From UHGV virus genome UHGV-1809260: a stretch of DNA of 16,081 nucleotides. One strand, written 5' to 3'. The notes beneath the pieces were generated by a model. That model searched no databases and was not told where the DNA came from. It was given only the letters and a program-made list of their open reading frames with translations. Origin of the DNA: a virus. Every line of letters begins with the position of its first letter. Within the stretch, counting starts at the first letter, position 1. Positions 1 to 11,901 of this stretch are shown one piece after another. A program made the position numbers and the translations under genes.

Positions 1-118
1 TAGTGTTTAAATGTCATGAATCCTCCCGGTCGGGATAATGTTGTGAGTCAGATAAGGAGCGAGCTGAAGTCCGGAAGTTACAGGACAATTGCAGGAGGAA
101 GACTACAGCCCGCAATAC

Positions 119-144
119 GAAAAAGGCCGCGCAGTTGCGCAGCC
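119..144 (-). terminator. Intrinsic terminator-like hairpin (minus strand)
   Basis: Plus-strand ggccgcgcagttgcgcagcc (125-144) forms an 8-bp stem with one G-U pair when read on the minus strand; followed on the minus strand by a run of six U (plus-strand A-run 119-124). Confidence 0.5.
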
Positions 145-199
145 TTATGAATTCTGGTTAAAATCCATTCGATTATAAAAATGTATATCTCATGCTGTT

Positions 200-225
200 G
201 CCCGAACCCACTCGGGCTTTTTTTT
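200..225 (+). terminator. Rho-independent terminator (plus strand)
   Basis: Perfect hairpin gcccga-acccac-tcgggc (200-217) immediately followed by eight T (218-225). Confidence 0.6.
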
Positions 226-233
226 GCCCACAA

Positions 234-485
234 GAAAGCCCCTCCGGAGAGGGGCTAAAGCCGCGTATCTGTATCATCATGCACATGGTGCCGGGTGCCT
301 CCCGGTGAGTTCAGCCCGGTGCCACTAAACCCGCGTCATTCTCGTTTTGATAATCAGAGATTATACCGTCACCAGTCGCCCCTCCGCTCAGGGGGATTCA
401 CCATGCGAAATTTTTTTAACAAATGCCCAGTCTGACAGGCAACTGTCAACTTACTGAATTGTGAGCAACATAGCATTTAACGGGG
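234..485. repeat. Paralogous structured unit A (~250 bp), copy 1 of 2
   Basis: Shares conserved blocks with 721-969: gaaagcccctccggagaggggct; catggtgccgggtgcctcccggtgagttcag; gcccctccgc-cagggggattcaccatgc; ttttaacaaa; ctgaattgtgag; aacggg. The blocks are separated by divergent spacers. Contains perfect hairpins gcccctc-cgga-gaggggc and ccggg-tgcct-cccgg. Confidence 0.6.
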
Positions 486-502
486 AACCTGTTTTCTGCA
501 GT

Positions 503-529
503 AAAAAGGCCCACCGGAGCGGATGGGCC
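503..529 (-). terminator. Intrinsic terminator-like hairpin (minus strand) between the two repeat units
   Basis: ggccca-(10 nt loop)-tgggcc at 508-529; on the minus strand it is followed by five U (plus-strand A-run 503-507). Confidence 0.5.
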
Positions 530-720
530 TGGAAGGATAGCGGTCATGTGATGCCGGTTTCCCGGTAACTCAGCACCGGTATCTGAGTCAACGTTTTCTC
601 TACTGGGTCATTTCCGATACGCCCTGCCTGCTGACAGGCTTTCATCACATCTGAAAATATAGCACCCTGACTGATACTGTAGTACCCAAGGTTCCAGAAA
701 CTGTGATGTATCCGGCACAG

Positions 721-969
721 AAAAGCCCCTCCGGAGAGGGGCTGGAGAGTGGCGCTATGTGCCATTGCATGGTGCCGGGTGCCTCCCGGTGAGTTCAGTA
801 TCAGCACCTGAACCCGCACAGAAAGGATAAGGGTCGGTGACAAAACACCAGTTGCTGATTGCCCCTCCGCACAGGGGGATTCACCATGCCAGTTTCTTTT
901 AACAAACTCCCCGCAAACCAGACAACAGTCAACCGCCTGAATTGTGAGGTATTTAAAAATTTCAACGGG
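721..969. repeat. Paralogous structured unit B (~250 bp), copy 2 of 2
   Basis: Same conserved blocks and the same two hairpins as unit A, in the same order and orientation; on the minus strand the gcccctc-cgga-gaggggc hairpin is followed by uuuucugug. Confidence 0.6.
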
Positions 970-1058
970 TAACTGATACCCTGCTAATCGCCTGATGCTT
1001 TCTTTTTCAGCAACGGGAAAGCAACAACCACCACACCCACCAGCCGCCCATTTACCAC

Positions 1059-1086
1059 AAATAAAAAAGCCTTCACTGCGGAAGGC
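1059..1086 (-). terminator. Intrinsic terminator (minus strand) at the 3' end of the 59-codon ORF
   Basis: Hairpin gccttc-actgcg-gaaggc (1069-1086); on the minus strand followed by uuuuuuauuug (plus-strand A-run 1063-1068). Confidence 0.5.
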
Positions 1087-1252
1087 GTCTGTAACAACCG
1101 AACTGATAGTCTGCCAGACCCGCCATAACCAGCTGGGTCAGTATTAACTGGCAGCGTTCGCGTGAAAGGTAAGTATTCTGCGCAATCTCCCCGACTGTCG
1201 CCGGGTAGGTGACGCTTAATTCATTAAACACCACTCTGGCGGTTTCTGTCAT
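1073..1252 (-). CDS. Small hypothetical protein (59 aa), not in the supplied ORF track
   Basis: Hand-translated from ATG at 1252 to TGA at 1073-1075: MTETARVVFNELSVTYPATVGEIAQNTYLSRERCQLILTQLVMAGLADYQFGCYRRLPQ. Lies between the tR'-like terminator and another terminator. Ribosome-binding site is weak (AGGA only one nt from the ATG). No family recognised. Confidence 0.25.
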   Translation of the reverse strand: MTETARVVFNELSVTYPATVGEIAQNTYLSRERCQLILTQLVMAGLADYQFGCYRRLPQ

Positions 1253-1387
1253 ATCCTACTGTTTTAGCATGTCTTTTTCCCTTTTCCGGTTAACGTGACA
1301 TACCAATAACTCTTGTCTAAAAAGCCAGCAAGCTGAAAGACAGGTATTCACCACCAGCACGTTTACTGTACTGATGCGATTTCAGTC

Positions 1388-1412
1388 ATAAAAAACCCGC
1401 CAGGCGGCGGGT
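1388..1412 (-). terminator. tR'-like intrinsic terminator immediately downstream of the Q gene
   Basis: Hairpin acccgcc-aggc-ggcgggt (1395-1412); on the minus strand followed by six U. It sits ~60 nt downstream of the Q stop codon, the arrangement expected for the terminator that Q-modified RNA polymerase reads through. Confidence 0.6.
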
Positions 1413-1471
1413 TTAAGTTGTGTGGCGTAGTAACCACTCTTAACATACTGACATACTTTTTGCGGACCGCG

Positions 1472-1864
1472 CTAATCATTTTTTACTTTTTTGGGCAGCC
1501 AGTCGTCCATCTCCAGCCTTACACCCAGCATCGACAGACATCCGTCAATAAATCCTTCAGCAATCTGCATCTCAATTCGTATTGCCTTTTCGCTCTTCTT
1601 TCTTGTTCTGGCAATCTGCCTTTTTGATATGCGCAGCAGATAATGAGCTACCAGCAGCGAATACTCGTCCGGTTTTTTCTTCTTCAGGCGCGTAAGGCAG
1701 TTTTCGATGATAAGGCCGTCATCATCGCTGCAGGCCGGGCGAGGTTTAGCGGTGGATGGTAAAAGGCCTTTAAATCCAGCAGCTATCGGAGAATAGTCCA
1801 CCCCGGCGTTACCACTTGCCGCCCATGCCCCCCAGCGTTCGAGAACCATCTGAATATCACGCAT
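1472..1864 (-). CDS. Late-gene antitermination protein Q (QuuD / phage 21-82 type)
   Basis: Translation from the ATG at 1864 begins MRDIQMVLERWGAWAASGN...SPIAAGFKGLLPS, which I recognise as the small Q-family N-terminus. GGAGA Shine-Dalgarno 6 nt upstream of this ATG. The ORF-track start at 1879 is a TTG extension. Confidence 0.8.
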   Translation of the reverse strand: MRDIQMVLERWGAWAASGNAGVDYSPIAAGFKGLLPSTAKPRPACSDDDGLIIENCLTRLKKKKPDEYSLLVAHYLLRISKRQIARTRKKSEKAIRIEMQIAEGFIDGCLSMLGVRLEMDDWLPKKVKND

Positions 1865-1881
1865 CAACTTTCTCCACAAAA

Positions 1882-2871
1882 TCAGGACAGCACACCAATC
1901 GCCAGCGCGCGATCGATAAAACGAAATATCAGCTCCAGCTGGGAGCCATACTTCTCTTCAAATGCCACGGTATCCGCATGCAGCTCGTCGTGATGCTTTC
2001 TGCACAAAGGCAACACAAAGAGGTCATGCGCTTTTGTACCCATTCCGCCCTGACCGTGACCTATCAGGTGGTGGGGATCATCAGCAGGTTTTCCACAACA
2101 TGCGCACGGCTGCGTCTTAACCCAGCGCGTGTACTTTTCATTAACCCAGCGGCGACGTTTTGGGCGTAACATAAAAGACTCCGGCGACTCCGGATCCACT
2201 TTCAGCGCCAGCACCTTTTTCGCTTTATCCCGGATAATACTGGTGGCGGGAACCGAAGGCACAAGGTCACTTTCCCGGGTGACAGACGGCACAACCGTCT
2301 TCGGTAATCTCAGTACCTTACGGGCTGCACTTTCCGGTAAGGCATCCGCCAGGTCATTACGAACCAGCCACCAGCACAGTTCCGGCATTGTCACAACGTG
2401 ACTGTCATCAAAACCAAGATCACGGCGCACAACAGACAACACCCAGCGGGCACAGTTATCCGTTGCCATTGATTCCAGCCGTTCCGTGAACTGGTCACGG
2501 AGGAGATTGTCACAGTGCCAGCACAGACGGATTGCGCCTGGCGCGTGCCGCATTGTGGTCATGTTCTCGCTGTGCCAGTCGGAATGAGGCCACTGACAGC
2601 CCTTTTCACGAAGTAACCAGCTCTCAAGGCATTCCACGCCACCAGCACGACGGATCACCGCCTCATTGCGGAACACGGCCCGAACGGCAGGATCATCCGC
2701 CAGCGGTTGTGATGCCGCCGGAACGGCACCACTGGCGAAAGATGAATAACGCTCCGGCTCAGGCTCCAGCAGGACACGCCCCTGCATAAACAGGGGCATC
2801 AGCTCTGAACCAGGCCTGAACAATACGATCCCCATACGCGGGGCAATTTCAGGGGTCAGTAGTGCTCTCAA
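1882..2871 (-). CDS. DUF968 (YdfU-like) prophage protein with C-terminal HNH-like Cys/His motif
   Basis: 329-aa ORF; C-terminus CACCGKPADDPHHLIGHG...LPLCRKHHDELH has a CxxC...HH...CxxHH pattern typical of HNH/zinc-finger nuclease-like modules. Position immediately upstream of Q matches DUF968 genes in lambdoid prophages. Confidence 0.7.
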   Translation of the reverse strand: MRALLTPEIAPRMGIVLFRPGSELMPLFMQGRVLLEPEPERYSSFASGAVPAASQPLADDPAVRAVFRNEAVIRRAGGVECLESWLLREKGCQWPHSDWHSENMTTMRHAPGAIRLCWHCDNLLRDQFTERLESMATDNCARWVLSVVRRDLGFDDSHVVTMPELCWWLVRNDLADALPESAARKVLRLPKTVVPSVTRESDLVPSVPATSIIRDKAKKVLALKVDPESPESFMLRPKRRRWVNEKYTRWVKTQPCACCGKPADDPHHLIGHGQGGMGTKAHDLFVLPLCRKHHDELHADTVAFEEKYGSQLELIFRFIDRALAIGVLS

Positions 2872-7528: not shown

Positions 7529-7749
7529 GCCACACCTCCCAGACGCTTAAACATTTTTCCGGAGCAAAAGGCTATAAGCGGCATACTGACGCGGTAATTA
7601 CGGCCCAGCGGTTCACAAATCACCTTCTGACATTCACGGTCAACCAGGCTAACACGTAGAACATGCCCTGCAGGCGTGGTGTACCACTGACCCGGACGAG
7701 GACAACGGAAAGTCTGATTGGTAAAACGTTTGAAAATATTCCGGATCAT
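7525..7749 (-). CDS. Hypothetical small protein (74 aa, four Cys)
   Basis: ATG at 7749 preceded by GGGGG with a 5-nt spacer; GTGA/ATGA overlaps with both neighbours. No family recognised. Confidence 0.55.
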   Translation of the reverse strand: MIRNIFKRFTNQTFRCPRPGQWYTTPAGHVLRVSLVDRECQKVICEPLGRNYRVSMPLIAFCSGKMFKRLGGVA

Positions 7750-8897
7750 TTGCGCCCCCTTGCCTCTGAAGGGTTCAGCGACAAATTTATGAGGCAGGCC
7801 AGCGCCGAAGCATCATTAATATAGTCATATAAGCTAACAGCCAGCGGAGATTCGGCTTTTGCCAACATAGGATAAAGCTGCTGCAGCCAGACCTGATGAA
7901 TTGATGAAATGTAGGAACAGAGAACGCTGGCGTTATGTGCAACGTCGCTCGGTACAGCAGGCTTTGAAAGCTGTTTCTCCATCTGGTTAAAGGCATTGAT
8001 GTATGCCTCTTTGAACTTGGCAGCACGTTTACCCGTGAAACCCATAGCAAGAAACGCAAAACCGTCGCGGGTGATTTGGTAACAAGGGAGTTTGCGGCCT
8101 GATGCGTCGGTGTATTCACTTAACACAAAAATGTGTTCAGTAAATTCAGCGGAACATTCGAGGTTTCTAATTCTATCTAAAACCCGCTCATGCCGTTTAG
8201 TAAAGTAATTAGCTACTGCAAGAGATGTGGTGACAACGCGACCATTGATAATCGTGATTTCAGGGTGAGATTGGGTTGGGAGAGTAGTCATGGTGACAGC
8301 CCCTATGTTGAATTCAATGAACTCACCACCAAGGCTTTCCACGACCATATAGGTGGTGAGACGTACAGGGGTGGAAATACCGGTCAACATAGAACCCGGC
8401 CCAACCGAAGTTGGCCCTGCACGCCCCACCATAATTTGGGCGTAACGATGCTCATGACACGAAAAAACCGCATGAGCGCGGTTGTGCTCTATATTGAATT
8501 TCGGGTTTCCACGCCCGGCACCCGCTTTATAAGGTGCCGGAACAGTGTAACGTCCCGGAATTGCAGAATCAATATGCTGGTGTTCCTTCACACTCAACAA
8601 AATCACGCCTGAATTTCCACAAAGGACTAAAGCACTCATGCGGGTAGTCTTTGCGAAGATAGATAACGCGCTGTGTTTCTGGCTCCCAACGAATAACATG
8701 GACATAAAGCCCTCTTCCGTCACGAAACCAGCGGTTAAGTTCCTGCACAACTCGCCCCCCACAGTCAGGTAAAGTTCTCTGTGGTTACTTACAGCCAGGT
8801 GATTTGGTAATCTGCATTCATGCCGTAACAACAGGTGTTCAGCGACGCTGACCACCAGCTGTTGCGACAAACGGTTATTTGCCGTTAAACTGTTCAT
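7746..8897 (-). CDS. Rha-family phage regulatory protein with an unusual ~200-aa N-terminal extension
   Basis: Residues ~203-305 (MTTLPTQSHPEITIINGRVVTTSLAVANYFTKRHERVLDRIRNLECSAEF...) match the Phage_pRha pattern. The frame stays open upstream to the ATG at 8897, which overlaps the upstream stop (ATGA) and has a GGAGA site. An internal ATG at 8291 also has an AGGGG site. Confidence 0.65.
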   Translation of the reverse strand: MNSLTANNRLSQQLVVSVAEHLLLRHECRLPNHLAVSNHRELYLTVGGELCRNLTAGFVTEEGFMSMLFVGSQKHSALSIFAKTTRMSALVLCGNSGVILLSVKEHQHIDSAIPGRYTVPAPYKAGAGRGNPKFNIEHNRAHAVFSCHEHRYAQIMVGRAGPTSVGPGSMLTGISTPVRLTTYMVVESLGGEFIEFNIGAVTMTTLPTQSHPEITIINGRVVTTSLAVANYFTKRHERVLDRIRNLECSAEFTEHIFVLSEYTDASGRKLPCYQITRDGFAFLAMGFTGKRAAKFKEAYINAFNQMEKQLSKPAVPSDVAHNASVLCSYISSIHQVWLQQLYPMLAKAESPLAVSLYDYINDASALACLINLSLNPSEARGRK

Positions 8898-9478
8898 GCG
8901 TTAGTTTCTCCACAACCAGAAGCAATCGACGCCACGACGCCCGGAGCTGCACACTCGCGGGCGTTACTCTTTTCCGGCGCACAAAAAACACGAAATAACA
9001 GTGTTAAATGCTCCTGCCACTTCGCCATTACTTGGTAGCTGTTCTCTTCGATTTGCTCACGCTCAGCCTGGTCAATAACTCCATCAGCAGTTGCCTTGCG
9101 TAAGTACTGGGAATGCTTGCCAATCCATTCTATTGACTCCATCAGCCGCTGATTAATGTCACCATTGTCAATGTCATCAATGTCCACCAGCGGCACAAAC
9201 ACCCCATTACAACGACGCGCTATCGCATCCGTTACATGCCTGGTACCACTGGCATCCTGTAAAACCATGGCCCACTCAAGTGGAAAAATTTGATCCCCAC
9301 CGCTACGCAGTCTGTTATGCAATTGATCTTTCGCTGGGGTGATATCATCAGATTTATACAAACCAAGAATTTCCGCTGCTTCCTCATAGCCATGAGGTAA
9401 ATCAGCAATCGTTCTTCGTATTGCTGCCACCAGCCATGCTGGTTGCTTATCAACTTTCCATTCAGGTTCTTTACCCAC
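8894..9478 (-). CDS. CII-like regulatory protein (phage 186 CII / CP76-like), start uncertain
   Basis: Segment KDQLHNRLRSGGDQIFPLEWAMVLQDASG...CNGVFVPLV parallels 186 CII (LRNKLNPEQPHQFTPPELWLLTDL...CLPCVPV) from memory. Chosen start is the GTG at 9478 with GAGGAA Shine-Dalgarno; the frame is open to ATGs at 9556 and 9589, which lack a Shine-Dalgarno and overlap cro. Confidence 0.5.
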   Translation of the reverse strand: MGKEPEWKVDKQPAWLVAAIRRTIADLPHGYEEAAEILGLYKSDDITPAKDQLHNRLRSGGDQIFPLEWAMVLQDASGTRHVTDAIARRCNGVFVPLVDIDDIDNGDINQRLMESIEWIGKHSQYLRKATADGVIDQAEREQIEENSYQVMAKWQEHLTLLFRVFCAPEKSNARECAAPGVVASIASGCGETNA

Positions 9479-9530
9479 GGTTAATTCCTCGTTTCTGTGG
9501 TTACGTTTACGCAGTTGAACCGCTAACTTT

Positions 9531-9770
9531 TTAATAGCACTCAGGTAATCCATCATTTGGATTGGGGTAAATATCAGGACGCAGTTCATGAGGGGTCACG
9601 GACCAGTTTCCCAACTCACAAAGTTGTAAAACCCGTTCTGACGGGACTTGATTGTTAATTACCCAATTGGCGACGGATTGAGTGGACTTAAAACCAAAGC
9701 GACGGGCTACTTCAGATAAAGATTTTCCCGCAGCCTTTACTGCTTTCTCTGTGTAGTTTTGAGATGACAT
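9531..9770 (-). CDS. Cro-like (YdaS-like) HTH repressor
   Basis: 79 aa; AGGAG Shine-Dalgarno upstream of the ATG at 9770. HTH segment KSLSEVARRFGFKSTQSVANWV and a C-terminal HELRPDIYP motif. Divergent from the cI-like gene across an operator-containing intergenic region. Confidence 0.8.
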   Translation of the reverse strand: MSSQNYTEKAVKAAGKSLSEVARRFGFKSTQSVANWVINNQVPSERVLQLCELGNWSVTPHELRPDIYPNPNDGLPECY

Positions 9771-9840
9771 ACCTTTCTCCTCTGAAATTCAGAGGGATAA
9801 TGCTACTTAAAATAGCAAATTGCAACTACTTAAAATAGAA
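9771..9840. promoter_or_regulatory. Divergent PR/PRM-like promoter-operator region
   Basis: Two copies of CTACTTAAAATAG (9803-9815, 9826-9838) within 17-bp near-palindromes (TGCTACTTAAAATAGCA at 9801-9817). Separate palindrome CCTCTGAAATTCAGAGG at 9779-9795 overlapping the cro ribosome-binding site. Candidate PR on the minus strand: -35 TTGCAA (9820-9825), 17-bp spacer, -10 CATTAT (plus-strand coordinates 9797-9802). Confidence 0.5.
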
Positions 9841-10581
9841 ATGACTAGCGCGTGCGATGTGAGTAATCTTCTACCTATGGTAGAAGAACAGAAGTATCCA
9901 GATTTCGCCAAGAGACTAAACGAATTGATGACAATCAAAGGAATCTCTGTCACTCAACTCAAAAGTCTTGTGGGCGTTACATATGAAATGGCTCGTCGAT
10001 ACACAATCGGCGCAGCGAAGCCACGTGTCTCTGTCATGAGTAAACTTGCGTTGGCTCTTGGAGTATCAGCTTCATATCTAGAATATGGTGTTGGAGATAG
10101 AGAGGAATGTAAGGAAATGGCAAGCATCCCCAATCCAACAAAGCCCGATGTATACAGGATAGAAGTTTTGGATCTTAGCGTTAGCGCAGGACCTGGGACC
10201 TATATGCTTTCAGACTATGTTGATGTGCTCTACGCCATTGAGTTCACAACTGAACATGCCCGTTCTCTTTTCGGAAACCGTTCTCAGAATGATATAAAAG
10301 TTATGACGGTAAATGGAGATAGTATGTCCCCAACTCTTGTTTCCGGGGATCGATTGTTTGTCGACATTTCCGTTCGCCACTTCCAGACTGATGGAGTTTA
10401 CTCTTTCGTTTACGGTAAGACTTTCCATGTTAAACGTCTACAAATGCAAGGCAACAAACTAGCTGTTCTTTCGGATAACCCCGCCTATGAGAAATGGTAC
10501 ATTGATGAGAAGTCGCAAGATCAGCTTTATGTTATGGGTAAGGCACTGATTCATGAGTCGATTAAATATAATCGACTTTAA
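9841..10581 (+). CDS. cI-like prophage repressor (N-terminal HTH plus C-terminal S24 LexA-type autopeptidase)
   Basis: HTH segment ISVTQLKSLVGVTYEMARRYTIG; Ala-Gly cleavage site (SVSAGPG); catalytic Ser in VNGDSMSPT and Lys in FHVKRL. The track start at 9820 is TTG; I prefer the ATG at 9841, with 9877 as an alternative. Confidence 0.85.
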   Translation: MTSACDVSNLLPMVEEQKYPDFAKRLNELMTIKGISVTQLKSLVGVTYEMARRYTIGAAKPRVSVMSKLALALGVSASYLEYGVGDREECKEMASIPNPTKPDVYRIEVLDLSVSAGPGTYMLSDYVDVLYAIEFTTEHARSLFGNRSQNDIKVMTVNGDSMSPTLVSGDRLFVDISVRHFQTDGVYSFVYGKTFHVKRLQMQGNKLAVLSDNPAYEKWYIDEKSQDQLYVMGKALIHESIKYNRL

Positions 10582-10815: not shown

Positions 10816-11901
10816 ATGATTAATGAACGTACTGAAGCGACAGATGGGGTAGCAGATATGATTTCCACCAATACAAAATATTTAGTATGGAACAACAAAG
10901 GTGGTGTAGGAAAAACTTTTCTTACATATAATCTTGCCGTTGAGTTTGCTATATCTCATCCGGATCAAGATGTTGTGGTTATTGACTCATGCCCTCAATC
11001 AAACGTTTCAGAAATTATTCTTGGTGGCAATGGTACCGGGGAAGAAAATCTAAATAAATTGCGAGACAGAAATGTTACAATCGCAGGTTATATCAAGGAG
11101 CGTTTTAGCAAATCTCCTTTGTCTCGTTTAGGAAATGAATCTTCTTACTTTGTACGAGCCCATGATGTTAATGCAAAAATGCCAGAGAACTTATATATTC
11201 TTCCTGGTGATGTCGATCTTGATATCTGTTCACGCTTAATATCTCACATTGGCTCATCCCCAGTAAAAGAAGCATGGAAGAAAAGCCGATCTTTGCTGGT
11301 AGATCTAATAGCATCTTTTGAAGCCGATAAAAACATTTCTGACAGAGCAAAAACATTTTTTATTGATTGTAATCCAAGTTTTGCCAGCTACACAGAATTG
11401 GGAGTAGTCGCGGCAAATAGAATAATTATCCCTTGCACTGCCGATGCTGCATCAATTCGCGGAATAAAAAACCTTGTTAAACTTATTTATGGAGTGTCTA
11501 TTGACAAGTCAGAACAAGATGAAATGTTCTTAGATTTCAACAAAGAAGCAAAGCAAAACCTTATCGAACTACCTGAACTACACCTTTTCGTACAAAACCG
11601 CTCAAGAACTAATGAAAGTGATGCAGCAAAAGCATTCAAATCACATGCAGAAGAGATCAAAAGAATCACGGATGACCTGTTAAATACACATCCTCATCTG
11701 TTCACAAATGTGGCTACTTTCGAGAGAGTTCAAAATGTCAAAGATGGTAATACTCTTGCAGCAATAATAAACCATGAGGGATGCCCTTTAAGTAGGCTGC
11801 AGCATAAGAGTTACACTATCTATGGTATGGCGACCCAAGCTAATAGAGCACAAATTGAAGCACTAGAATCTGATGTTTCAACAGTAGTCAAGTGTCTGTA
11901 A
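10816..11901 (+). CDS. Orphan ParA/MinD/Soj-superfamily P-loop ATPase (361 aa) in an AT-rich island
   Basis: Deviant Walker A WNNKGGVGKT, Walker A'-like VVVIDSCPQSN and Walker B-like TFFIDCNPSF. About 130 extra C-terminal residues with no recognisable family. AGGA site upstream of the ATG. No ParB-like gene adjacent. Confidence 0.8.
   Translation: MINERTEATDGVADMISTNTKYLVWNNKGGVGKTFLTYNLAVEFAISHPDQDVVVIDSCPQSNVSEIILGGNGTGEENLNKLRDRNVTIAGYIKERFSKSPLSRLGNESSYFVRAHDVNAKMPENLYILPGDVDLDICSRLISHIGSSPVKEAWKKSRSLLVDLIASFEADKNISDRAKTFFIDCNPSFASYTELGVVAANRIIIPCTADAASIRGIKNLVKLIYGVSIDKSEQDEMFLDFNKEAKQNLIELPELHLFVQNRSRTNESDAAKAFKSHAEEIKRITDDLLNTHPHLFTNVATFERVQNVKDGNTLAAIINHEGCPLSRLQHKSYTIYGMATQANRAQIEALESDVSTVVKCL

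Follow-up and report, generated by a model that had tools for sequence, protein, structure and literature searches.

The window analysed here, a stretch of 16,081 nucleotides of the virus genome UHGV-1809260, carries at its left end a region (positions 1-1471) that follows a Q antiterminator gene on the minus strand. Folding of this region revealed seven strong hairpins of the terminator type. Six of them are located on the minus strand, which is the strand of the late operon, and the seventh lies in convergent orientation on the plus strand. All seven had been listed in a first-pass annotation made from the sequence, and they fold as claimed there, at coordinates within a few bases of the re-folded ones. 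On the minus strand, the hairpins at 1394-1414 (U-run to 1389; -16.3 kcal/mol, z = -3.8), 724-743 (-22.2 kcal/mol, z = -3.6), 507-530 (-16.3 kcal/mol), 237-256 (-21.1 kcal/mol) and 123-146 (-19.5 kcal/mol) are accompanied by a weaker one at the end of a small ORF; the hairpin on the plus strand (200-217, with U8) reached -11.1 kcal/mol. A scan for consensus terminators gave 10 hits in 1-1471 (7 distinct sites and 3 nested sub-stems), in comparison to 1.9 ± 1.6 hits in dinucleotide shuffles. The 7 distinct sites include one extra weak site at 424-441. The hairpin at 1394-1414 was missed by the scan, apparently because its stem is extended into the U-run.

Searches of Pfam and PHROGs with the ORFs of at least 40 amino acids in 1-1471 gave no family of holins, endolysins or spanins, and the absence of holin and endolysin genes from this stretch, which had been stated before, was thereby upheld. 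Likewise, tRNA genes were not found in 1-1471, and tRNAs as they occur in this slot in Stx phages are thus not the content here. Repeats at a spacing of 484 bp are present within the stretch.

The Q module and the small ORF

The gene at 1472-1864 (minus strand) encodes a protein of 130 amino acids of the Q21/Q933W family. It matched PF06530 (E = 2.8e-52) in Pfam, PHROG 79 ('anti-termination protein Q-like') and the solved Q21 structure PDB 6P18 (E = 1.4e-7), and it shares 48% identical amino acids with Q of phage 933W. The gene is a Q antiterminator gene of a recognised family and lies immediately upstream of the hairpin stretch.

A putative late promoter pR' with a Q-loading region was assigned to positions 1427-1492 (minus strand), the positions of promoter and transcription start being predictions. 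The region comprises an A-rich UP-like tract (1478-1492), an 8-bp direct repeat AGTATGTC/AGTATGTT (1442-1457), a -10-like TATGTT (1442-1447), a conserved AAGAGTGGTTAC (1430-1441) and, as a candidate pause element, the -10-like TACTAC (1427-1432). The direct repeat resembles the two-subsite QBE of Q21 (bioRxiv 10.1101/651190). Since the -35 is poor and the pause element is devoid of the usual final T, this placement of pR' is tentative.

The Q module is directly followed by a tR'-type intrinsic terminator (1389-1414, minus strand) with a 9-bp GC stem and U6. A tR'-like terminator had been proposed at 1388-1412, and both the hairpin at 1394-1414 with its U6 and the module boundary found at this position bear this out. 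In the annotation of 933W, the homologue of this hairpin is the first 'possible rho-independent terminator', and the block consisting of AAGAGTGGTTAC and the hairpin aligns with the annotated pR'/qut/terminator region of that phage. Furthermore, the pR' segment co-varies with the type of Q: a genome with a different Q is homologous only from the tR' hairpin downward, and its Q module possesses its own, unlike hairpin at the tR' position. This break in homology shows that Q, pR' and tR' form one module.

It is known that pR' is constitutively active in lysogens and that its transcripts are terminated at tR' (PMC7547250). As for lambda 6S RNA and StxS (PMC7547250), the Q gene is here followed by a promoter-like region and an intrinsic terminator, and a short RNA is expected in the lysogen. 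While StxS is derived from a precursor of 258 nt (PMC7547250), the predicted pR'-tR' RNA would have a length of ~45 nt if transcription started near 1435, and outside the qut-like block and the first hairpin its sequence does not resemble StxS. An assignment of the STnc100 RNAs described below as such a pR'-tR' leader was rejected, because the Q-linked module stops at the hairpin 1394-1414, and because the STnc100 unit of 933W is located after stx2B, ~2 kb from pR'.

The small conserved ORF downstream of tR' (1073-1252, minus strand; PHROG 331, E = 6.5e-33) encodes 59 amino acids here and 65 in relatives, in which it is annotated as a hypothetical protein after Q (loci L001 and L003-L006). A C-to-T change has generated a TAG in the present sequence, and the start has moved to position 1252. 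The product is possibly a winged-helix protein, as weak hits to TrmB/Crp HTH proteins suggest. The terminator of this ORF (1059-1086, stem 1069-1086, minus strand) consists of a 6-bp stem and UUUUUUAUUU (U6), overlaps the stop codon and is weaker than all the others (z = -0.5 in a fold that includes the flanks).

The small RNA genes

Three tandem units on the minus strand follow the small ORF. The promoter-proximal copy (713-925; RNA predicted at ~889-717, terminator 724-743) and the distal copy (226-442; RNA predicted at ~406-230, terminator 237-256) are STnc100-family sRNA genes, which matched Rfam RF02076 with 141.4 bits (713-918) and 165.5 bits (226-435), respectively, at a gathering score of 47. 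The homologue of the distal copy in 933W, located in the same place after stx2B, reached 207.7 bits. The proximal copy folds into a closing helix, a multibranch core and the terminator. Closing helix, multibranch core, single-stranded linker and terminator are common to all three units and to PasD1, PasD2 and STnc100. Among 22 diverse members of the family, double-sided changes were found in 16 of the 33 consensus pairs, for example, the compensatory change of CCCC/GGGG to UUUC/GAAA.

A consensus promoter scan of the minus strand revealed no convincing sigma-70 promoter, and promoters were therefore assigned from alignments instead. For the proximal copy, for which the mapped 5' end of the homologue PasD2 was also used, the promoter-like elements are TTGTCT (920-925) and TAAAAG (896-901), and for the distal copy TTGCCT (437-442) and TAAAAA (413-418), each pair with an 18-bp spacer. 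The predicted -10 and 5' end of the units align with those of PasD2, which has its mapped 5' end 8 nt downstream of the aligned -10 TAAAAA. Such elements occur at a fixed distance in all intact STnc100 copies of the alignment, and in diverged subfamilies, some of them with good TTGACC-17/18-TAAATT promoters, their spacing from the RNA core is likewise constant. In both copies here the -10 (TAAAAA, TAAAAG) as well as the -35 (TTGCCT, TTGTCT) are imperfect. TTGACA and TTGACT further upstream are an alternative and possibly the real -35 elements.

The middle unit (503-665, minus strand; RNA predicted at ~650-505, terminator 507-530) possesses an extended -10 TGCTATATT (657-665). With 30.1 bits (501-674; E = 3.2e-4) it remained below the STnc100 gathering score of 47; it is a diverged relative of STnc100 and not a member by the Rfam criterion, and it folds like a member. 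Its STnc100-type multibranch architecture is formed by different helices, with AUGUGAUG/CAUCACAU as the closing helix (-54.9 kcal/mol, z = -2.6). In comparison to a phage homologue with different flanks, only one base differs in the core of ~90 nt, and the substitutions are distributed 6/9/8 over the three codon positions, which indicates that the unit is non-coding. It was found in 673 of 5426 complete E. coli genomes (~12%) and was unannotated in the records sampled.

Other identities of the middle unit were rejected. A decayed pseudogene does not agree with the full architecture with its compensating helices, the extended -10 and the single base difference in the core between phages with different flanks. 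The ORF 547-843, which overlaps this unit, matched PHROG 23557 (E = 1e-29), but the matched part lacks a start codon, and the distribution of the substitutions over the codon positions also speaks against a small protein gene. This match is probably due to ORFs that were called automatically across conserved RNA genes, and the same is probably true for the ORF 295-435 (PHROG 24488), which was likewise rejected as a protein gene. The middle unit is also not PasD, which is an STnc100 core fused to a terminator of the type found at 123-146. Only this diverged middle paralogue and the three-gene array are new here; the remainder was already known. Being structurally intact and below the threshold in Rfam, the middle unit could join the STnc100 family.

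On the plus strand, an AsxR/AgvB-type anti-sRNA gene (135-225; RNA predicted at 170-225, terminator 200-217 with U8) was detected, which is convergent with the distal STnc100 copy; their 3' ends abut, at 222-225 and 226, respectively. Promoter-like elements are TTGCGC (135-140) and TAAAAT (159-164) with an 18-bp spacer. The gene scored 63.0 bits against RF02703 (AsxR), which is exactly the gathering score of 63, and 43.4 bits against RF02702 (AgvB), below the gathering score of 56; AsxR of 933W has the same convergent position and scored 88.1 bits. Members of the AsxR/AgvB family are RNAs of 51-60 nt encoded between a moron and a conserved phage ORF. Their 5' ends are complementary to core sRNAs, namely to the FnrS terminator loop (AsxR) or the GcvB seed (AgvB). 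The model alignment revealed the traits of this family also here, i.e. a conserved 3' part of ~42 nt, a variable 5' end and a convergent second sRNA, with ~6 positions of the 5' 'variable' (targeting) region differing from AsxR. Tree et al. 2014 (PMC4104026) reported such convergent pairs of sRNAs for Sakai prophages, in which they occupy the moron site 3' of pR', and also described the function of AsxR and AgvB.

Homologues of the STnc100 units are well documented. In EDL933, eleven STnc100 copies were listed, all with RNA-seq reads and with no inducer reported, and one of them was confirmed by Northern blot (PMC5331693). For PasD1 and PasD2 of EPEC, Northern blots confirmed the transcripts, and both RNAs depend on Hfq (PMC8550237). 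A relationship of PasD to STnc100 has been described, as has its linkage to the genes for Q, esterase and holin/lysozyme (bioRxiv 10.64898/2026.05.13.724894). Overall, the homologues form discrete RNAs of 160-210 nt, which are associated with Hfq in vivo (PMC5331693, PMC8550237, PMC4104026), and expression of the copies at the present locus is likely to follow the same pattern.

These reports are also relevant for the question of whether the STnc100-type units are independent genes. All three are oriented as the late operon and have imperfect predicted promoters; in 933W, the unit begins ~75 nt after stx2B, and its hairpin is the first terminator after stx2AB (PMC12370729). In addition, the neighbouring sRNA family PasA is reportedly cleaved from a longer transcript (bioRxiv 10.64898/2026.05.13.724894). 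The units might thus be pieces of the late pR' transcript, i.e. 3'-UTR-type or processing products of moron mRNAs, which would appear only under upstream transcription, and the main role of the hairpins would then be that of mRNA 3' ends or of stabilisers. We regard this as quite unlikely. The -35/-10-like elements are kept at a fixed distance from the core even in diverged subfamilies, the 5' end of PasD2 was mapped 8 nt downstream of the -10, and the homologues are abundant without a reported inducer, when tR' blocks pR' transcripts (PMC5331693, PMC8550237, PMC7547250). Moreover, an RpoD ChIP-exo signal was observed at STnc100 copies of Salmonella (PMC10794520). After induction, transcription from own promoters and from pR' may both contribute.

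The core itself is highly conserved, covarying and multibranched, and thus more elaborate than a typical base-pairing sRNA, and it is always located upstream of late genes on the same strand. This could point to a cis-acting RNA which, like put of HK022, binds RNA polymerase and promotes read-through independently of or besides Q. Such a function is extremely improbable. The STnc100 covariance model gave no match at E ≤ 1 in the early and late regions of HK022 (27600-38200), which contain putL and putR. A strong terminator closes each of the units, and the RNAs that accumulate from homologues are terminated and have lengths of 160-210 nt (PMC5331693, PMC8550237). Homologues including PasD are bound by Hfq and base-pair in trans with many mRNAs (PMC8550237), and the Q gene present here is of a known family, which suffices in related phages. 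A put-like cis-antiterminator was therefore rejected.

The elaborate core could also act in its own right as a modular scaffold, e.g. as a platform for protein binding or stability that presents interchangeable seeds. In that case, unequal crossing-over over 484 bp would generate tandem arrays which diversify the targeting of the host, and the units would not be three redundant Hfq sRNAs. This idea is speculative and on the whole unlikely. The linkers, which are short, variable and presumed to be the seeds, differ in sequence from that of PasD, and the targets of the units are therefore probably unlike those of PasD.

The esterase leader and the probable lysis genes beyond the edge

The last minus-strand hairpin is a PasD-type intrinsic terminator (117-146) with a 10-bp stem and UUUUUCGUAUU, located at the head of an esterase leader. 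The -35 of the AsxR-like promoter overlaps with it on the opposite strand; the hairpin is conserved in 933W and other prophages and is homologous to the terminator at the end of the EPEC sRNA PasD2. In PasD the core is joined directly to this terminator, whereas it stands separately here. Positions 1-116 (minus strand) comprise the leader, ribosome binding site and start codon (ATG, 15-17) of a nanS-p-type SASA sialate O-acetylesterase, which is the first gene of the late operon to the left of the window. The leader is highly conserved and folds as a long hairpin (z = -3.9).

In an E. coli genome with 99.9% identity (locus L001), the coding sequence of the SASA esterase starts at locus position 9017, which corresponds to position 17 of the window. 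There, the nanS-p esterase is followed on the same strand by genes for DUF1378 and DUF826 proteins, a class II holin, YdfR, a lysozyme, an Rz-like protein and terminase. In near-identical E. coli genomes the holin gene starts ~2.7 kb and the lysozyme gene ~3.7 kb to the left of position 1, on the same strand. The SASA esterase was annotated under the match in 9 of the 9 genomes that cover at least 80% of positions 1-1900; lysis and terminase genes were read in one of these nine, L001, and the window itself extends no further than the start codon of the esterase gene. In near-identical genomes, the extension to the left which had been suggested by the first-pass annotation thus leads to the esterase, holin, lysozyme, Rz-like and terminase genes. 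Its statement that no lysis cassette follows Q is correct for 1-1471, but it describes an effect of the window edge. Lysis genes immediately to the left together with a lack of discrete small RNAs had been named as evidence against the first-pass reading, and this combination does not apply, as homologous units give discrete RNAs in uninduced cells (PMC5331693, PMC8550237, PMC4104026).

A stretch without lysis genes, a small ORF with a premature TAG in comparison to its relatives and the repeats spaced at 484 bp would also be compatible with a defective prophage, in which the lysis cassette was deleted and replaced by non-functional repeat debris with hairpins as relics. This is very improbable, as the window ends exactly at the conserved esterase leader and ATG, the esterase is annotated in all nine well-covered genomes and lysis and terminase genes follow in L001. 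Furthermore, the repeats are high-scoring and structurally intact sRNA genes, the same array is found again in other phages between other flanking sequences, and the viable phage 933W is organised alike.

A probable moron slot at the start of the late operon

Most probably (probability roughly 85%), positions 1-1471 represent the 'moron' slot at the start of the late operon, on the minus strand, of a Stx-type lambdoid E. coli prophage, in which sRNA units are combined with read-through by Q. In this model, the order after Q is the putative pR' with the Q-loading region and tR', the small ORF with its terminator, the three tandem STnc100/PasD units, the convergent AsxR-type gene and the PasD-type terminator; past the window edge, the lysis cassette and then structural genes would come next, and each of the three sRNA units would possess a sigma-70-type promoter beside its own strong intrinsic terminator. 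In the lysogen, tR' would halt the pR' transcripts, while the sRNA units would fire from their own promoters and end at their own terminators, so that discrete Hfq-binding RNAs would be formed and nanS-p, holin and endolysin would stay off. Upon induction, Q would load onto the polymerase paused just downstream of pR', and the modified polymerase would pass all six terminators and transcribe first the sRNA cluster and then the genes for lysis and morphogenesis. Q-loaded polymerase is known to 'ignore terminators' (bioRxiv 10.1101/651190), and from this mechanism of the family and the viability of 933W, Q-dependent read-through is also to be expected here.

The first-pass annotation had offered two alternatives, a cascade of terminators that Q-modified polymerase must pass or a cassette of small independent transcription units. 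The late genes, which lie on the same strand in near-identical genomes, can be reached only through six minus-strand terminators, and the slot contains known sRNA genes with their own terminators (two Rfam STnc100 matches, the diverged third unit and AsxR). Both readings are thus supported, and they are not alternatives.

Own terminators and a presence that varies among related phages, as expected for morons, were both found. Among relatives (L001-L006 and L128), the slot contains tRNAs, an HTH protein, a DNA methyltransferase, and one or two STnc100 copies. Where many hairpins and few ORFs are found after Q in E. coli prophages, the stretch should be annotated as an sRNA/moron slot of the late operon and not as a missing lysis cassette. 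In pathogenic E. coli, the Hfq networks of the host are rewired by prophage sRNAs of the STnc100/PasD and AsxR/AgvB types. As these RNAs are encoded where Stx phages carry the Shiga toxin genes, their variants and the number of copies are relevant to differences in regulation between strains.

The arrangement is not an oddity and corresponds to the normal published layout of Stx-type lambdoid prophages. In 933W/Sp5 of EHEC, the order is Q - pR' - tR' - tRNAs - stx2AB - STnc100-type sRNA/AsxR - nanS-p - S R Rz (Tree et al. 2014, PMC4104026), and the 933W record contains three annotated terminators between pR' and stx2A. The present locus shares the gene order, the strands and the family of Q with 933W, as well as a homologous qut-like block with the first terminator, a homologous STnc100 unit abutting a convergent AsxR-type unit, and a homologous esterase leader with genes for holin and lysozyme further downstream; the units of PasD and STnc100 likewise adjoin Q and the sialate esterase. 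In contrast to 933W, neither stx genes nor tRNAs are present here, the slot comprises the ORF of 59 amino acids and three STnc100-family units instead of one, and the AsxR-type RNA possesses a different 5' region.

Hairpins and the genes around them

All hairpins listed by the first-pass annotation for positions 1-1471 were present within a few bases, and in each of them folding gave a GC-rich stem with a U-run downstream. Six lie on the minus strand, on which this region is read (1394-1414, 1069-1086, 724-743, 507-530, 237-256 and 123-146) and one on the plus strand (200-217). Scanning the region for consensus terminators gave 10 matches, and dinucleotide shuffles 1.9 ± 1.6, so that there is a real excess. 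Three of these matches were nested sub-stems, which leaves seven distinct sites, among them an extra weak one at 424-441. The scan missed the hairpin at 1394-1414, apparently because it prolonged the stem into the U-run.

Neither Pfam nor PHROGs gave a lysis-protein match for any ORF in 1-1471, and tRNAs were not found in this region. The statement that no lysis cassette follows Q is thus correct for the region itself, but not beyond position 1. In E. coli JNEC-KY203, which is 99.9% identical to window positions 1-1900, the gene from position 17 (minus strand) encodes a SASA-family sialate esterase of the nanS-p type. Next on this strand come DUF1378, DUF826, a class II holin, YdfR, lysozyme and an Rz-like lysis protein, and then HNH and terminase genes. 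The leftward extension in this near-identical genome thereby located lysis and terminase genes, with the lysis cassette beginning approximately 2.7 kb beyond position 1. Since the esterase was annotated under the match in all nine genomes with at least 80% coverage of this query (1-1900), the missing cassette is an effect of the window edge. A defective prophage with deleted lysis genes is contradicted by the same observations.

The hairpin at 1069-1086 forms the end of a small conserved ORF (1073-1252, minus strand; PHROG 331, E = 6.5e-33), which is located 3' of Q in several related prophages, too. At codon six of the 65-aa form of this ORF (1253-1270, minus strand), near-identical genomes possess CAG and the window TAG; due to this C-to-T change, only a start at the internal ATG (1252) is left, giving 59 aa.

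The leader of the esterase gene (17-113, minus strand) is near-invariant in 933W and in several prophages. A long hairpin (GCGGGCUG...CAGCUCGC) and a small RBS-sequestering one were obtained by folding this leader (z = -3.9), which may be cis-regulatory.

Small RNA units

An Rfam search at gathering thresholds identified two STnc100 copies (RF02076) on the minus strand, a distal one (226-435, 165.5 bits) and a promoter-proximal one (713-918, 141.4 bits), as well as AsxR (RF02703; 170-222, plus strand) with 63.0 bits, exactly at the threshold. An additional permissive scan revealed a weak third STnc100 match between both copies (501-674, minus strand; 30.1 bits, E = 3e-4). Thus, four of the seven hairpins terminate sRNA genes.

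The middle unit shows the fold of both strong copies, in which a closing helix encloses a multibranch core, and a single-stranded linker and a terminator complete the RNA; its helices, however, differ in sequence (e.g. AUGUGAUG/CAUCACAU in place of CAUGGUG/CACCAUG). With the same architecture built from different helix sequences, the unit is not a wreck. Its homologue in phage vB_EcoS-640R1 is 86% identical, with a single base difference in a core of about 90 nt. Outside this core, substitutions are distributed 6/9/8 over codon positions 1-3 of the overlapping ORF, which shows that the region does not code for protein. A predicted extended -10 element (TGCTATATT, 657-665, minus strand) lies upstream. 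The unit was present in 673 of 5426 complete E. coli genomes; the full-length matches that were sampled lacked any annotated feature at this place. Furthermore, 22 diverse family members, collected from viral contigs by a conserved-core pattern, were aligned; double-sided compensatory changes in 16 of 33 pairs support the STnc100-family fold. Though diverged and below the Rfam threshold, the middle unit is an intact STnc100-like RNA.

ORFs at 295-435 (plus strand) and 547-843 (minus strand) overlap the sRNA genes and match PHROG 24488 and 23557, families without known function. In relatives, the upstream STnc100 copy is covered by a PGAP pseudogene call. Both PHROGs are probably ORF-calling artefacts over conserved RNA genes.

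Candidate promoters precede the distal (TTGCCT-18-TAAAAA, 413-442, start near 406) and the promoter-proximal copy (TTGTCT-18-TAAAAG, 896-925, start near 889), both on the minus strand. Their placement is supported by the mapped 5' end of PasD2, which lies 8 nt downstream of a TAAAAA -10 and 2 nt upstream of CAUGGUGAAUC. PasD1 and PasD2 of EPEC are Hfq-dependent, Northern-validated RNAs of 172-173 nt (PMC8550237); PasD is related to STnc100 and linked to Q, esterase and holin/lysozyme genes (Zhu et al., bioRxiv 10.64898/2026.05.13.724894). The 11 STnc100 copies listed for EDL933 were all covered by RNA-seq reads from a culture for which no inducer was reported, and one was confirmed by Northern blot (Neuhaus et al., PMC5331693). 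In Sakai prophages, sRNAs occur as convergent pairs at the moron site on the 3' side of pR', and AsxR and AgvB serve there as anti-sRNAs (Tree et al., PMC4104026). After induction, the sRNAs may arise from upstream transcripts that are terminated or processed; as the sole route this is disfavoured by the conservation of the promoter elements, by the position of the PasD2 5' end and by the expression without reported inducer.

The hairpin at 123-146 lies at the head of the strongly conserved esterase leader and overlaps, on the opposite strand, the -35 of the AsxR-like promoter. By its homology to the terminator of PasD2 (E2348/69 locus L129, 1805-1829), it is a PasD-type terminator. PasD is apparently an STnc100 core joined directly to such a hairpin, whereas in the window an extra terminator and the convergent AsxR-like gene lie between them, which suggests that PasD and STnc100 are related by a simple deletion or insertion in the interval from core to hairpin.

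Q module and proposed read-through

The Q antiterminator ORF (1472-1864, minus strand; PF06530, E = 2.8e-52; PHROG 79) is preceded by a DUF968 gene. Its product is 48% identical to Q of 933W and matches the solved Q21 protein 6P18 (E = 1.4e-7). In a genome with an unrelated 229-aa Q, homology to the window starts at the hairpin 1394-1414 and extends only downward; that genome has its own, different hairpin at the equivalent spot. Judged from these comparisons, the hairpin 1394-1414 is the terminator of the Q module.

AAGAGTGGTTAC and this hairpin can be aligned with the 933W region annotated as pR', qut and first terminator. On this basis, pR' is tentatively placed on the minus strand with a -10 TATGTT (1442-1447), an A-rich UP-like tract (1478-1492) and a start near 1435. 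An adjoining 8-bp direct repeat (1442-1457) resembles the two-subsite Q21 binding element (bioRxiv 10.1101/651190). This promoter has a poor -35, and TACTAC is an imperfect pause element.

Further upstream, Rfam detected C4 antisense RNA (8349-8436, 82.4 bits) and isrK (8461-8537, 61.6 bits) in tandem on the minus strand, both inside the same-strand ORF 7749-8897. Its Pfam Ash match (residues 117-213, nt 8259-8549) lies exactly over these RNA genes and is followed by a Rha domain. The upstream part of this ORF, and perhaps part of the Ash family, may be a translated RNA-coding immunity region of the P1 c4/Gifsy isrK type. The genes for an S24-peptidase/HTH (CI/LexA-like) repressor (9820-10581, plus strand; divergent from the early-right operon), a subsequent ParA-like AAA ATPase (10816-11901, plus strand) and a CII-like (CP76) protein (8894-9589, minus strand) are the immunity-region context of the prophage.

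pR' is constitutive and terminated at tR' in lysogens (Sy et al., PMC7547250), and Q-loaded polymerase ignores terminators (Yin et al., bioRxiv 10.1101/651190). Beside the observed hairpins, RNA families and synteny, promoter use, expression of these sRNA copies and read-through by this Q are predicted from homologues and the established Q mechanism. In the lysogen, each sRNA unit would be transcribed from its own promoter and stopped at its own terminator; tR' would stop pR' transcripts, and the hairpin 123-146 would back up the last unit. We propose that nanS-p, holin and endolysin are thereby kept silent. Upon induction, Q would load at the pause close to pR', and polymerase modified in this way would pass all six minus-strand terminators and transcribe the late genes. 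A put-like cis-antiterminator function of the STnc100 core is argued against by the lack of similarity found in HK022 and by the units' own terminators. A terminator cascade and small independent units, formerly posed as alternatives, both apply: the units are sRNA genes with own terminators, and the late genes follow downstream, most probably reached by Q read-through.

Comparison with Stx-type prophages

The sRNA region matched 354 phage records, mostly of Stx-converting phages. The three-unit array also occurs in a phage that has another Q and lacks the esterase, and the tandem pair with 484-bp spacing in at least five of the 113 viral-contig loci listed with extractable copies. Two related prophages (L003 1001-1250; L006 1280-1530) carry, in place of the AsxR-type unit, a different convergent hairpin unit (GCCCGCGTCTCCCAGCGCGGGC and T-run, opposite strand) below every Rfam threshold, which is probably another anti-sRNA variant.

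Related E. coli prophages have tRNAs and an HTH protein, or a DNA methyltransferase, in the same slot, and some possess one strong STnc100 copy instead of two. The layout is shared by 933W, which shows a Q of the same family, pR'/qut, and STnc100 (207.7 bits) abutting a convergent AsxR (88.1 bits), followed by esterase, holin, lysozyme and Rz; between pR'/qut and the STnc100 unit it carries two putative terminators, tRNAs, another terminator and stx2AB. The region is thus the sRNA/moron region already known from Stx-type lambdoid prophages, to which the diverged middle unit and the PasD-type identity of the hairpin 123-146 are two small additions.
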